Both the position numbers and the translations under genes were made by a program. From the NCBI GenBank assembly GCA_965215005.1, contig CBDCCZ010000044.1, positions 64,001 to 128,000 of the forward strand: a stretch of 64,000 nt of DNA. The letters are read 5' to 3'. The notes under the pieces are model-generated. The model was not told the DNA's origin. It made no database searches and saw only the letters and a list, made by a program, of their open reading frames with translations. Origin of the DNA: Kofleriaceae bacterium. GTDB taxonomy: Bacteria > Myxococcota_A > Polyangia > Haliangiales > Haliangiaceae. Positions 25,823 through 31,645 of this stretch are shown in pieces (position 1 is the first letter of the stretch; each line of letters begins with the position of its first letter).

Positions 25823-26104
25823 ATGGCGAAGAAGCAGACACGGCGCAGCATCAGCGTGAGCCGGGTTACCTATGAGCGCCTCAAGGGCTACTGCGAGGCT
25901 CAGGGAGTCTCGATGAGCCAGTTTGTTGAGGCGCGCGTTGGCGACTACCTAGGCGAATCGAAGACCGAAGAGCGAACCACGTTGCCGAGGCCTTCGCGTC
26001 CCGAACCGGTGCCGATGGTGTCGGTGCGGCCTCTTGCGCGAGAGCAACAGCCGGAGGTGAAGGCGCCGCGCAAGATCACCGCCGAGCAGATCTTCACGTT
26101 CTGA
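25823..26104 (+). CDS. Small ribbon-helix-helix-like protein
   Basis: RRSISVSRVTYERLKGYCEAQGVSMSQFVE fits the strand-helix-G-helix RHH pattern; possible promoter TTGCCT-N17-TAGCGT at 25782-25810. Confidence 0.7.
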   Translation: MAKKQTRRSISVSRVTYERLKGYCEAQGVSMSQFVEARVGDYLGESKTEERTTLPRPSRPEPVPMVSVRPLAREQQPEVKAPRKITAEQIFTF

Positions 26105-26471: not shown

Positions 26472-26852
26472 CTAGCGAGTCACCTGGTCGTCGCTGCCCA
26501 AGGCTGGAAACGTCGCGATCACTTCGGTGGTGATGCCCCCGCGTACGAAGAATTTGCCGGTTACCGTCATCCGTCGTGGTTTGGTGGCGGCGACCAAGTC
26601 ATCGAGAATCTGATTGGTGACGGCTTCATGGAAGGCGCCTTCATTGCGGTAGCTCCACAAGTAGAGCTTGAGTGCCTTGAGCTCCACGCACGTCTGTTCG
26701 GGAACGTACTCGATGGCGATGTGAGCAAAGTCAGGTTGGCCGGTGAGCGGGCAGAGACAGGTGAATTCCGGGCAGTCAAAGCGGATTAAGAACCCGCGGC
26801 CCGGCCGAGGATTTGGGAAGGTTTCGAGAGTTTTGCTCGGGGTGCTCGGCAT
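26472..26852 (-). CDS. queF: NADPH-dependent 7-cyano-7-deazaguanine reductase (short type I)
   Basis: [22 protein letters not shown], QueF motif [19 protein letters not shown]. Confidence 0.97.
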
Positions 26853-27113: not shown

Positions 27114-27122
27114 TGCTACTTT
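27114..27122 (+). promoter_or_regulatory. Candidate extended -10 promoter
   Basis: TG-C-TACTTT directly upstream of the structured region. Confidence 0.35.
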
Positions 27123-27367
27123 TTGTAGCGCGGCGGGCACGACGCGCATATGCTGGAGGTACGGCTAACCTCACAGGCCGCCGGTATCACCGCGCGAGCT
27201 CCCAATGCGGGGACCGTGGAGGTGACCGGGGACGGGTCAAAGAAAGGGCCCACAACGAAAGCTCAGCCCACGGGAACCGCCTCCGTTGCATACCACGCTG
27301 TACGCGGCGTGATTGAGCGGGCCGAATAGGCTGAGTGCTGGCATGTAGCCAGGGGAGGTGAGAACGC

Positions 27368-27415
27368 ATGAACCAACACAGTCGTGACTTCAACCGAAAG
27401 GAGCTCTTGCTCTAA
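27368..27415 (+). CDS. 15-aa small ORF MNQHSRDFNRKELLL
   Basis: Near-perfect SD GGAGGTGA (27354-61) 6 nt before the ATG. Confidence 0.45.
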   Translation: MNQHSRDFNRKELLL

Positions 27416-27447
27416 CGTCCCTTCGGGACATTGAGTAGGAACTGCGG

Positions 27448-27480
27448 GGGCCTCTGGCGATGAGTCAGAGGCCCTTTTTT
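27448..27480 (+). terminator. Intrinsic terminator
   Basis: 11-bp stem GGGCCTCTGGC/GTCAGAGGCCC, loop GATGA, then T6. Confidence 0.9.
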
Positions 27481-27691
27481 ATGGTGCTCACGCAGATCGT
27501 TTGAACGCGCTCACGCCGGGCACTGGTGAGATGAGTGCAACGGCGGAGCGCCGAGAACAAGACGCCGCAGGTCAAATGACGCGGGTGCTTTGCGCGATCG
27601 ACGAGCAGTGCCGTGAATCGCCTTGGGTGGGCCAGAGACAGTAGAGCGGTGCAGGTTTGGCAGCGCGGACCTGCTGAGCGACTCGCAGTGG

Positions 27692-30600
27692 TCAAGGCAC
27701 GAGCAGCTGGAGGAATGGGATGCCTTCGGCCCCGCTCGTGATCAGCCCGCCGCCGAGTCGAGCGTAGAGTGCGACGAGGGGAGAGCCTTCGTTGGCGACC
27801 GCCTCCAATGCTGAAAGTACCGCCGCGGTATCGTCTTCGTTGCGTGCGCGGAGCAGCAGTGCACCGGTAGCGACAATGCGGCGCATCGCCTGTCGCTCCG
27901 AGCCACGGAGGCGGGCGCCGAGCTCCGCTGGTGATTGCGTGGCTGCCCAGGCAGCCGCGAGTGCGGGCAACATGGCCGCGCGAACATCGTGCGAGGGGTC
28001 ATCGACGAGCGGCTCGAGGAGCGCGACCGCAGCGGCAGGATGGTGCTCGAGTAGGCCAACTGTCGACGCGGCGGCGCGAGCGCGACGCTCTTCGGAGCGC
28101 GAGGCGAGCGCTTCTGCCAACACGGCGCTCACCGCTTCTGGCTCGCCGACCCGCGCCATGGTCGTCATTGCGGTGGTGCTGATGCCTGGATCGGCATCGC
28201 GCATCGCGAGCGTGAGCGCCCGGTCGCGCTCCGCCGGCTCGAGCTCGCGTGCATCACCGAGACGAGCCAGCGCTTGCCGTCGCACCGCCGGATCGACATC
28301 GCTGAGGGCCGCTTGAACTGCGTTGCTGGTGCCGATTCCTGCGGCCAAGGCTGCATCGATAGCGGCGATTCGCACCCGCGGCGACGCATCGGTGACGGCC
28401 ATATCGATCAGCGCGGTGCTCTCGATAGCCTGTGCGGTAGAGATCAGAACCAGTTTCTCGGCCTCATCGGCGCGATCGAAGGCGGCGACGAGCACTTTCT
28501 TGGCTGCGGCGGGAGCCGATGGACCCACTCCGGCGAGCGCCCGAGTGGCGATCAGACGAACGGCGCGATCATCGTCGCGCGCGAGGTTGATGGTGGTCTC
28601 GATAATCTGGTCCGTCGGCTTTCCGTCGCCGCCGAGGTGGCTAGCCAGCACCCGTGCTGCTTCGGCGCGAATGTCCACGTCCACGTCTTGACTGAGGCGA
28701 GTGGCCACCGCGATCGCCGCGTCGGCTTCGCCAGGATGGTCCGCGACGCATTCGATGATCCGCTGTCGCACCTGATTGAACTTGCTCGATGTCGCCGCCA
28801 CCAGCTCGCGGATCGACGGCGAGTGGTTCGCGACTAGACCGCGACATAGTCCTGCGACAGCCGCTTCTTGCAGATCGTCGTCGTCCTCGCGAGCGGCCGA
28901 ACGAAGATAGCTAAACACCGGCGCCGGACTGGTCCGGGCGATTTCCGCGAATGCTTCCGTGGCATAACGCTTGGGCCGGCCGTCGCGCTTCCAGAGCTGG
29001 CGGATCCCGCCGATTGCAGCGCCGACGTTGCCACCGGCTTCGATGCTGTTTGCGAGCCCATACGCCGCGCCAACCGCTACATCGAGGCGCTCGGTTTTGA
29101 TCATTTTATTGAGCTCGTTTTGCGAGCCTCGCCCGGTGTGTCCATAGGCGCGTGCCGCCGCGGCGCGCACTGCAGGAGTATCATCTTTGAGAAGTGCTTC
29201 GAGCGCCGGCCGGGCAGCGCGATCCTTGCGCTGAGCGATCTCACCCCACGCTAGTGCGATGGCTTCGCGCAGCTCGGGACTCAGCTGACCTTGTAGCAAC
29301 ACGATCTGCTCCGCAGCTTTCTGCGGCGCGAGCCGCGCATACAGCGGCAGTGCCGCCGCGCGAACCGCCTCGACTTTGGCTTTCCATGCACGGCTTATCG
29401 AACGAGTGAATTGCTTTGCGAGCGCGCCTACCAGCTCCGTTGAGAGGTTCTCGTACAGCATGCGCAGCGCCGCAACTCGGTCTTCGGTAGCCGCCGTTGC
29501 GGTTTCGGCTAAGGTCGCGGCGGCGACGCTCGCGGCTTGCGGATCTGTTGCGAACGCCCGTCTCAGCAGCGCGTGAGCTTTTTGTCGCGTAGGGGCTGCG
29601 ACGTCTTCGTTGCCAAGCACCGAAACCGCCGATTCGGCGGACGGGGCGGCTTCATCGGTGTCCGCGGCAACGATGGCCAAGAGCTCGCGACGGGCTGCTG
29701 GATTGGGATCCGTTGCCAATGCATCGCGATAGAGCTGCCGCGCGAGGTCTTCTTGCAACCCTCGCACGGCGGAAAACGCGATGCGACGCAGCTCGTTATC
29801 GGTAGACGTGAGAGCCTCTGCGAGGGTGTCGTGATACGCATCTCCACGGCGCCGAGCGGATGACGCGGCGACTCGCAATGCTGCGGCTTGGACTGCAGGA
29901 GAGGCGTCACTCAACGCAGCTTCGACCAGCTCCACCTCTTCGGGGCCGCCGCGGGCGAGCGGCTCGAGTCGCTCGAGTAGCGTGATCATGTCGCCGGGGC
30001 CTTGCACCATTTTACGCAGCCCCGCGATTTCGGTGGGAGCACCGGTGATCGCGTAGGCGATGAGGCCTGCCAACTCATCATCGAGTGCCGCCAACGCAAT
30101 AGCGGCGTAGCCCTCCGCTCGGTCTCCATTGAGGTCGTGCGATGCCACCGCTCGCCACACGTCGGCTTCGACCATGGGATGGGTAAAGCCGGTGTCGGCG
30201 ATCATCGAGCCAAAGGAGGGACTCGCTGGTAGCCAGTGAAACACCGATAAAGCCGGCTTTCCAGCCCGAACTACGAGCCGCTGATCGGCTGCTGGCCCCG
30301 CAACATCAAGATAGAAGCTCCTTGCGAGGACGATGTACACCACCACCAACGAAATGAGCGGGACGGCGACGGCGACGGCGGCAATGATGGTGAAGAAGCG
30401 CCGCGTGCGCTCGATGACCGTCCGCTCTTCCGGCGTGGAGGGGGCGATGTTTTCGCGGCGTAGCGCCCACCACTCGCGCAGCGATAGCCGCGAGCTTTCG
30501 GCCGCTTTGGAACCGAGCAGCTCGAACGCGCGGCGCGCTGCGACCCGCGCCGGCGCCGCGATCTCGCGAACGCGCGGGATCAGGATCTCATGGCTCAACG

Positions 30601-31645
30601 CATAGTGGGTTTGTGAGTCGTCACTGGTGCCAGTCACTGGGACGACGAGCCCCTTGTCGGCGAACACCTCGAAGGCGCGCCGTGCAAACGCTGGATCGAT
30701 GCTTACTCGGCTCGCTGCCCATTCGGGGGCGTAGGCCACTGGCGCCGGATGCGACGCGAGCTCGGCGATGAGTCGCAGCGCGGTGCGTTCACTGCCGGTT
30801 GCGGCAGCCGCACCGGTGATCCACGCGCGGACGAGCTCGAGCGCTCCGCCGATCGCTTCAAGGCCTGCCAGCGTGGTGATCTGCAGCTCGCGGAGCGCCA
30901 TTGCGCTCATCTGGACGTCTGCAGGAAGAACGCCGCGAGCGCCCTGGTCGAGCTCTCGAGCGACCACGGTGGCAAGCTTTGGATCCGCGGCTATCAGCGC
31001 GACTGCTAACGTTCGCTCTAGCACCGAGGAGGCGGTGGCAAGGTCGAAGCGCTGCAGCTCGTACCGGGCGGGTGGGGGAAATAGCGAACCGGTGCGACGT
31101 TCGAGAGCTCCGAAGAGATGCACGCGCTCACTAGCGCAGCTGAACAGGAAGCGGGCGCGACCGCCGGAGCGCGTGACGACGCGGGCGAATAAATCGCCAA
31201 TCTCGCCGATCACCGGATCGTCGCCGCGCGCGAACACCACATCGACTTCATCGAGGATGAACACGTAGAGCTGGCCCGGCAGCGCTTGCCCGACCACGCG
31301 CGCCAGAAATGTCATCGGGTGCTCACCAGGATCGGGCGCCAGGCCAGTGGCTGTCGCAAGGGCGTGGGTGAAGGAATCGATGGGGCGAGTAACGTCTTCG
31401 CAGAACAGCGCCATGACGCCGTGGTCGCGCAGATGCGGTACCAAGCCCGCGCGTAGTAGCGACGTCTTGCCGACGCCGGGCTCACCATAAAGGAGACCCG
31501 CTCGGAAGCCATCGCCCGTTACAAGCTCGGCGAGCTGATCGCGCTCGCGATCGCGACCGAGGAGCACGTCTCGCTCGGACTCGACAAAGGCGCTCAGCCC
31601 GCGGAGCGGAGTCACCGTCCCCGGATAGGTCGCGACTGCCGGCAC
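27692..31645 (-). CDS. STAND-like (nSTAND1-type) NTPase with one TM helix and HEAT/PBS-lyase repeats
   Basis: LLGRDRE, Walker A GEPGVGKTSLLRAGL, Walker B FILDEVD, YALSHE winged-helix motif, hydrophobic segment near aa 415-440, many 'D..P.VR..A..AL' repeats. Confidence 0.82.
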   Translation of the reverse strand: MPAVATYPGTVTPLRGLSAFVESERDVLLGRDRERDQLAELVTGDGFRAGLLYGEPGVGKTSLLRAGLVPHLRDHGVMALFCEDVTRPIDSFTHALATATGLAPDPGEHPMTFLARVVGQALPGQLYVFILDEVDVVFARGDDPVIGEIGDLFARVVTRSGGRARFLFSCASERVHLFGALERRTGSLFPPPARYELQRFDLATASSVLERTLAVALIAADPKLATVVARELDQGARGVLPADVQMSAMALRELQITTLAGLEAIGGALELVRAWITGAAAATGSERTALRLIAELASHPAPVAYAPEWAASRVSIDPAFARRAFEVFADKGLVVPVTGTSDDSQTHYALSHEILIPRVREIAAPARVAARRAFELLGSKAAESSRLSLREWWALRRENIAPSTPEERTVIERTRRFFTIIAAVAVAVPLISLVVVYIVLARSFYLDVAGPAADQRLVVRAGKPALSVFHWLPASPSFGSMIADTGFTHPMVEADVWRAVASHDLNGDRAEGYAAIALAALDDELAGLIAYAITGAPTEIAGLRKMVQGPGDMITLLERLEPLARGGPEEVELVEAALSDASPAVQAAALRVAASSARRRGDAYHDTLAEALTSTDNELRRIAFSAVRGLQEDLARQLYRDALATDPNPAARRELLAIVAADTDEAAPSAESAVSVLGNEDVAAPTRQKAHALLRRAFATDPQAASVAAATLAETATAATEDRVAALRMLYENLSTELVGALAKQFTRSISRAWKAKVEAVRAAALPLYARLAPQKAAEQIVLLQGQLSPELREAIALAWGEIAQRKDRAARPALEALLKDDTPAVRAAAARAYGHTGRGSQNELNKMIKTERLDVAVGAAYGLANSIEAGGNVGAAIGGIRQLWKRDGRPKRYATEAFAEIARTSPAPVFSYLRSAAREDDDDLQEAAVAGLCRGLVANHSPSIRELVAATSSKFNQVRQRIIECVADHPGEADAAIAVATRLSQDVDVDIRAEAARVLASHLGGDGKPTDQIIETTINLARDDDRAVRLIATRALAGVGPSAPAAAKKVLVAAFDRADEAEKLVLISTAQAIESTALIDMAVTDASPRVRIAAIDAALAAGIGTSNAVQAALSDVDPAVRRQALARLGDARELEPAERDRALTLAMRDADPGISTTAMTTMARVGEPEAVSAVLAEALASRSEERRARAAASTVGLLEHHPAAAVALLEPLVDDPSHDVRAAMLPALAAAWAATQSPAELGARLRGSERQAMRRIVATGALLLRARNEDDTAAVLSALEAVANEGSPLVALYARLGGGLITSGAEGIPFLQLLVP

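Follow-up and report, generated by a model that had tools for sequence, protein, structure and literature searches.

A widely conserved, apparently undescribed myxobacterial RNA family with a mini reading frame and two Shine-Dalgarno sites

A 64,000-nt stretch of a Kofleriaceae genome (the window) almost certainly contains a real, conserved, stand-alone RNA gene, for which transcription is predicted and which genome searches place in more than 200 myxobacterial genomes, almost always once. The RNA family is widely conserved, apparently undescribed and unusual in its mini reading frame, which has one Shine-Dalgarno (SD) site ahead of the start codon and another ahead of the stop codon. We favour, at a rough probability of 45%, a reading in which this is a stable, folded stand-alone RNA whose function would be engagement of the ribosome through the translated frame, and not the peptide.

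Results

Locus and predicted transcript

The element lies in the gap between queF and an nSTAND1/HEAT-repeat gene, both on the minus strand, and the gap contains a strong plus-strand terminator. Region 27125-27482 folds better than shuffled sequences on both strands (z -3.2 for plus, -3.7 for minus) and folding energy therefore cannot select the strand; homologues select the plus strand, the one favoured by the initial annotation. The features are as follows, in window coordinates.

26472-26852, minus: queF, divergent neighbour (PF14489, E 3.9e-33), of interest for synteny only
27126-27131, plus: -35 element TAGCGC, 17 nt before the -10; TGGC occurs there in 42/58 homologues and TAGC in 5/58, positions having been chosen by a scoring script so that the counts lean to consensus
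27149-27154, plus: -10 element TATGCT; TAnnnT at the aligned place in 57/58 family homologues
27161-27480, plus: predicted transcript of ~320 nt, from 6 nt after the -10 to the U tract
27162-27180, plus: P1, 5'-terminal hairpin of the minimum free energy (MFE) fold; compensatory changes in 4/4 pairs (16 cells, 57 family sequences)
27181-27229, plus: P2, long irregular hairpin with tip loop AAUG(C); main helices p 0.87-0.98; lineage-specific
27234-27251, plus: P3 hairpin, p 1.0; compensatory changes in 2/4 pairs (57 family sequences)
27252-27260, plus: single-stranded linker ending in conserved GAA; invariant or nearly invariant columns in alignments A2 and A3
27261-27336, plus: P4, with outer helix 27261-27268/27329-27336, inner core 27272-27280/27317-27323 and a variable insert
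27294-27311, plus: UACG-capped hairpin in the P4 insert, specific to this copy
27338-27352, plus: P5 hairpin CUGGC/GCCAG, between P4 and SD1 and adjacent to both; 98% of cells paired
27352-27359, plus: SD1, strong Shine-Dalgarno site GGGGAGGU, invariant in 19/19 homologues (fixed by the search pattern)
27368-27415, plus: mini reading frame of 15 codons (MNQHSRDFNRKELLL) plus TAA; 12-19 codons in 116/116 parsed homologues
27398-27403, plus: SD2, an SD-like AAGGAG 9 nt ahead of the stop
27405-27440, plus: UUCG-capped hairpin over the last codons and the stop; two main helices p 0.99-1.0; form specific to this copy
27446-27480, plus: intrinsic terminator, 13-bp stem plus U6; 4 terminator-like sites versus 0.9 in shuffles
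27692-31645, minus: nSTAND1 NTPase and HEAT-repeat gene, convergent neighbour (PF20703, PF13646)

Aligned homologues share the order TGGCR, 17 nt, TAnnnT, 6 nt, hairpin, and the start was placed at 27161 because their first hairpin begins there, 6 nt after the -10. Predicted transcripts in the family are 252-369 nt long (median 301, n=55). The initial annotation had proposed an RNA with its own promoter and terminator, and both features hold up, with the terminator at 27446-27480. The extended -10 that it had named, at 27114-27122, is present in the sequence, but alignment places the conserved promoter at 27126-27154, 35 nt downstream; the boundaries drawn from it were consequently wrong, and homologues give 27161-27480 as the likely transcript. 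With a loose pattern, a U tract follows the stop codon at no more than 220 nt in 57/59 family homologues and in 24/33 copies of a second family, f10. The 5' arm of the terminator at 27449-27458 (CCUCUGGC) is complementary to the 3' strand of P5 and SD1, and the word CCUCUGGC also occurs directly after the stop in several other genera.

Distribution of homologues

A BLAST search over 60 relatives returned 13 single matches within the family, all of which proved to be true homologues. An exact pattern that did not specify ATG matched 19/138 family genomes (reversed control, 0), and all 19 matches have an ATG after the SD and a frame of 13-16 codons. Covariance model R1, which ends a few bases past the ATG and contains neither SD2 nor the stop, detected the element in 125/138 genomes of the Kofleriaceae/Haliangium family and in 70/73 of those of good quality; the tally includes two unpublished genomes (G084 and G085) and is 123/136 without them. 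Family genomes have one strong match each, two equal matches being seen in one genome, and the window's own genome holds no second copy. Apparent double copies were noted at L350, where a short metagenomic contig carries one on each strand, and in G007 and G464, with two matches each; these may be assembly artefacts.

The element extends beyond the family. In a genome collection, 17/61 pattern matches scored at least 70 bits with R1 and carry the labels Kofleriaceae, Haliangium, Myxococcales, Nannocystineae or delta proteobacterium, while the other 44 scored at most 28 bits and were dropped as chance. Models R2 and R3 found the element in 39/151 genomes of the class, in 11 families, in 101/151 genomes of f10, and in 21/151 of a phylum sample, with a single one outside the class; besides the window's family and f10, nine more families of the class carry it. 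It should be noted that these distant matches come from models containing ATG, SD2 and stop columns. Searched genomes of f5 (0/20), f12 (0/19), f14 (0/20), f16 (0/11) and f13 (0/10) gave no match. Absence from these five families and outside the class may reflect divergence, since one carrier (G249) was missed by a strict filter and caught by a lax one. Two patterns run against a viral collection gave 1 chance match and 0.

Conserved structure

Compensatory changes are seen in P1, P3 and P4 among 57 family sequences. P4 and P5 are paired in 95%, 92% and 93% of cells in three alignments, and their covariation exceeds all 500 shuffles and the slid controls in each, although one of these alignments, the third, had been fitted to the model and related sequences are not independent. 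All 8/8 pairs of the outer P4 helix change on both sides, and one pair of P5 switches from U-A (19) to C-G (13) across families. The inner P4 core, GG-AA-CCGC/GCGG-G-CC, is nearly invariant within the family and eroded or replaced in several distant families. The GAA linker is also present in other families, and in f10 two adjacent covarying hairpins occupy the place of P2. The 5' domain is thus structured, yet lineage-specific; the features that are constant across families are GAA, outer P4, P5, SD1, an AU-richer spacer, AUG, the frame, SD2, the stop and the terminator. The sequence after the stop varies among homologues. No covarying long-range or pseudoknot helix to the frame or the SD sites was found.

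Two further observations concern loops. The paired f10 hairpins (for example in L262 and L272) end in conserved loops, AUGG(U) and AGCAC, between which a kissing interaction could form, an arrangement that may resemble the SRP Alu domain; in other families P2 again has an AUG-like loop at its tip.

Several helices of the initial annotation survive: CCGGU..CACC/GGUGACCGG at 27181-27191/27221-27229, GCUCAGCC/GGCUGAGU at 27261-27268/27329-27336, the UUCG hairpin at 27405-27440 and, as sequence, the UACG hairpin at 27294-27311, for which ViennaRNA prefers a shifted pairing (p ~0.6). Its multibranch closure does not. The stem UAUGCUGG/CUGGCAUG, said to close a multibranch domain, appears in one MFE (z -1.1, with 28/200 shuffles as good), but the -10 box supplies its 5' arm, and in all homologues the 3' arm folds into the local hairpin CUGGC/GCCAG. 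Similarly, the 5' arm of the proposed AGGU/ACCU helix lies upstream of the inferred start.

The mini reading frame

The parsed set comprises 116 homologues, 59 from the window's family and 57 from 11 other families, and represents loci returned and fetched rather than all matches; L119, L183, L186 and L241 were dropped as false matches, L257 was left out of the counts (start mis-parsed) and L196 was not parsed. The frames end in TAG (62), TAA (43) or TGA (11), GTG replaces ATG twice, and changes in AUG-to-stop length preserve the frame through indels. Because R2 and R3 favour ATG, SD2 and stop features, a bias-free test was run with a pattern ending at the ATG. Of 120 metagenome loci, giving 105 distinct matches of which 103 were scorable, 70/103 have frames of 11-19 codons and 61/103 of exactly 14. 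We consider the frame very probably translated.

Conservation of the frame is not matched by that of the peptide. In 12 pairs from the window's family the dN/dS ratio is 0.44, where queF gives 0.077; a set of 29 disjoint pairs yields 0.63, and 30 pairs of 14-codon f10-type frames yield 1.07. Changes by codon position number 40/46/50 in the frame versus 59/44/290 in queF, synonymous sites are less variable in the frame (pS 0.18 versus 0.43 in queF), and conserved frame positions use one codon, exemplified by AGT in 58/78 with other Ser codons absent. The conservation of synonymous sites, together with the use of one codon per conserved position, suggests selection on the RNA. The frame therefore appears to be kept by selection while the peptide is hardly selected. 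There is a hint of amino-acid constraint in the window's family, as the in-frame ratio of 0.44 is below those of the shifted frames (1.0 and 0.93, 12 pairs). Ser, Glu, Arg, Thr and Cys are common in the peptides, which are polar and differ from copy to copy, and the frames contain no run of regulatory codons. The suggestion in the initial annotation of a switch controlling the internal peptide is weakened by these data.

SD1 forms a duplex of median energy -10.1 kcal/mol with an assumed anti-SD motif (116 homologues), the 16S 3' end having been looked for in this assembly and not found. The SD1-to-AUG spacing is 7-13 nt. The start region has an AU share of 0.56-0.59, compared with 0.33 upstream, and SD1 is predicted to be largely base-paired (mean unpaired 0.21-0.33), the P1 loop being a possible partner in this copy (p 0.79).

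A site of -6 kcal/mol or stronger 5-19 nt before the stop (SD2) occurs in 105/116 homologues versus 10% of 3779 genes of the genome, and GG at -13/-12 before the stop in 98/116 versus 9% of genes. The GAG of SD2 begins 12 or 15 nt before the stop in 90/102. SD2 falls below the -6 kcal/mol cut in 17/70 metagenomic copies. At L188 an in-frame stretch extends the frame to 19 codons and SD2 still lies 8 nt before the stop, which a CU-rich tract follows. L018 and L172, two of three sampled members of one genus, have no SD2 and retain a 15-codon frame; L051, from the same genus, has SD2 and has lost the queF neighbour.

Events at the stop codon itself gain no support from the homologues. A restart codon follows the stop in at most 7/116, no slippery site or constant read-through length was seen in the homologue frames, and re-initiation, frameshifting and read-through are all unsupported by these sequences. 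TGA was absent as frame stop from a set of 62 copies and from all 59 loci of the window's family, although 53% of the genes in this genome end in TGA; copies in other families do use it. Termination by RF1 only, which the 0/62 had suggested, is ruled out as a general rule by TGA in 11/116 and 17/70 copies.

Gene context

Within the window's family queF is divergent at 52/59 loci. It is near none of the distant homologues (0/58 loci, searched to ~1.5 kb), which rules out a link to queuosine, and the genes beside the element vary in kind and direction across loci (rough strand caller). The element therefore appears to stand alone and not to be tied to one neighbour. Some distant copies have a same-strand gene downstream; in the window there is none, the next gene being convergent, which agrees with the earlier view that the element is not a simple attenuator. 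A rough neighbour survey showed no recurring modifying-enzyme gene near the copies. The convergent gene at 27692-31645 (minus) encodes a 1317-aa protein with an nSTAND1 NTPase domain, a membrane segment and HEAT repeats, and shows synteny with the RNA in some members of the family. At 25823-26104 (plus), convergent with queF, lies a gene for a small ribbon-helix-helix protein (weak PF07878), and an N-terminus resembling this protein recurs beside the RNA in several family loci.

Comparison with known RNA families

Rfam 15 at gathering thresholds gave 0 matches in the window and 0 in 20 diverse homologous loci, and E-value scans (up to 10) of the window and of 19 homologues yielded sub-threshold matches, mostly to terminator hairpins. 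The Rfam result, together with the homologues, upholds the initial description of an undescribed structured RNA. Its exclusion of tmRNA, RNase P, SRP and 6S RNAs was also correct, as none matches at the element and all are found elsewhere in the genome. ARAGORN found no tmRNA in the window (the genome's own is on contig C3), and RNase P RNA (RF00010) and SRP RNA (RF00169) are likewise excluded by their own loci. 6S RNA (RF00013) has no model match at the element, which forms a series of local hairpins and not a rod with a central bubble. Separate 6S genes score above the cut-off in 3/5 genomes tested, all three of them carriers of the element, ruling out a 6S stand-in. The likely 6S gene of this genome is at G000:C4:61516-61658, 81% identical to a relative's 6S over 147 nt, and was missed by the RF00013 genome search. 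A resemblance to the ykkC/guanidine-I-type riboswitch did not hold: none of the 22 matches obtained from 19 homologues (E up to 10) was to this class, and no downstream gene is consistent. Type I toxin-antitoxin mRNAs, for which a conserved hydrophobic peptide is expected, are ruled out by the polar, variable peptides.

Discussion

Comparison of homologues reveals an element that has its own promoter and terminator and, between them, a 5' hairpin, the covarying helices P4 and P5, SD1, AUG, an in-frame stop and SD2. On the mechanism that we propose, transcription would run from 27161 to 27480, with both ends protected by hairpins. A 30S subunit would load at SD1, beside P5 and in the AU-richer start region, and 12-19 codons would be read. 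With the stop codon in the A site, SD2 would pair with 16S rRNA, and this pairing would slow release of the RNA. Its GGAGG would end 5 or 8 nt before the P-site codon, which approximates the spacing of a start site and is similar to the 7-13 nt that separate SD1 from AUG. In vitro, an SD upstream of the stop makes mRNA release from post-termination ribosomes 50-fold slower and leaves the rate of 70S splitting unchanged (PMC5737721). Ribosome holding may thus be brief, as splitting is not slowed. Also counting against the model, SD-induced pauses during elongation have been argued to be an artefact (PMC6377232), SD1 is predicted to be largely paired, some copies lack SD2 or fall short of the energy cut, and the window's family shows a hint of amino-acid constraint. 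More speculatively, the RNA could buffer or park ribosomes and present its 5' domain on them. This ribosome-engagement model leaves the 5' domain without explanation. In its fullest form, which we put forward only tentatively and hold to be less than an even chance, the element would be a class-wide myxobacterial housekeeping RNA that holds ribosomes as RNA only, a decoy message with an SD at the start and another in stop register that captures, cycles or stores ribosomes with its structured 5' domain docked on them. Our searches brought up no RNA of this type.

In its working the element comes closest to a leader-peptide attenuator RNA that has no operon attached. The attenuator RNA rnTrpL, 140 nt long and encoding the 14-aa peptide peTrpL (PMC12612679), typifies a group that resembles the element in its short frame, SD-like site near the stop, intrinsic terminator and small released transcript. 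Unlike them, the element has neither a consistent same-strand operon downstream nor a regulatory codon run, occurs in varied gene contexts and carries ~200 nt of covarying structure before the SD. It could nonetheless be a translation-gated, trans-acting regulator, an orphan attenuator RNA in which passage of the ribosome toggles SD1, SD2 and anti-SD pairings and thereby sets RNA stability or exposes a trans-acting part. The frame is of leader-peptide size, SD-like sites near the stops of attenuator leaders are cited in PMC5737721, and in 41/59 full-length family folds either SD1 or SD2 is paired to the segment after the stop. SD1 complementarity to that segment exceeds shuffles in 19/59 family members versus 1/59 for a control segment, and the P1 loop offers a partner for SD1 in this copy. 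However, significant SD1 complementarity is seen in just 6/57 distant homologues (this count and the 19/59 also weaken the peptide switch), the alignments contain no conserved pairing seed after the stop, and neither the regulatory codons nor a covarying long-range helix to the SD sites was found. We consider this reading rather unlikely.

A riboswitch or thermosensor governing a functional, fast-evolving peptide (a signal, RiPP precursor or kin marker) would account for a structured domain that abuts the SD, a nearly invariant inner P4 loop within the family, the weak in-frame constraint (family dN/dS 0.44) and the prevalence of Ser, Glu, Arg, Thr and Cys; it is improbable given a dN/dS of 1.07 in the 30 f10-type pairs, single-codon conservation, the erosion or replacement of the P4 core in several families, the absence of any riboswitch model match to the core (19 homologues, E up to 10), and neighbours that, in the rough survey, include no recurring modifying enzyme. 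Nucleotide-level conservation inside the frame and several GGA motifs would also suit an untranslated protein-binding RNA, such as a CsrA-type sponge, in which GGAG, AUG and UAR are simply nucleotide motifs. Such an RNA is hard to reconcile with length changes that keep the frame, three interchanging stops and the exchange of ATG and GTG, while CsrC matched a terminator hairpin alone, weakly, in 1/19; we give this view little credence. Least probable of all is cis attenuation or antisense control of a neighbour, either queF, divergent in 52/59 family loci, or the downstream gene, which is on the same strand in some distant copies, as queF is absent at 58/58 distant loci, the downstream genes differ and the gene here is convergent.

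Other stand-alone RNAs share part of this design. tmRNA (RF00023) is, like the element, a structured, single-copy, ribosome-directed RNA with a short frame. The element differs in having no tRNA-like domain and a canonical SD and AUG start, in a genome that has its own tmRNA. 6S (RF00013) and Pxr of Myxococcus are stand-alone structured myxobacterial RNAs of similar size class; no model matches the element, and carriers have separate 6S genes.

The dual-function small RNAs SR1, SgrS, Spot 42, VcdRP and PhrS (PMC12612679) are likewise stand-alone small transcripts with an ORF and their own terminator, from which the element differs in its peptide, not conserved as a functional product (dN/dS 0.44-1.07, with weak constraint possible in one family), and in the lack of a conserved pairing seed. 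The sORF/uORF candidate motifs of comparative screens (PMC11109978) share a conserved SD, start and in-frame stop, but are defined by coding-type conservation or a consistent downstream gene, neither of which the element shows. The literature searched, mostly open-access, brought up no description of the element. Term look-ups in the main texts of PMC8538405, PMC11109978 and PMC10128143, and of 2026 preprints on genome-wide ncRNA mining, likewise gave none; the supplements of either group could list the motif among unnamed clusters.

Few structured RNAs of this size are both single-copy and widely conserved, and those that are usually have central roles, as do tmRNA, 6S and SRP RNA. The present one has escaped annotation in a class whose members likely include cultured producers of natural products with large genomes. 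Selection appears to keep the frame and both SD sites, not the peptide. The element thus provides a natural experiment on whether ribosomes are retained in vivo by an SD ahead of a stop codon, a matter of continuing dispute, and on whether translation can itself be a function.
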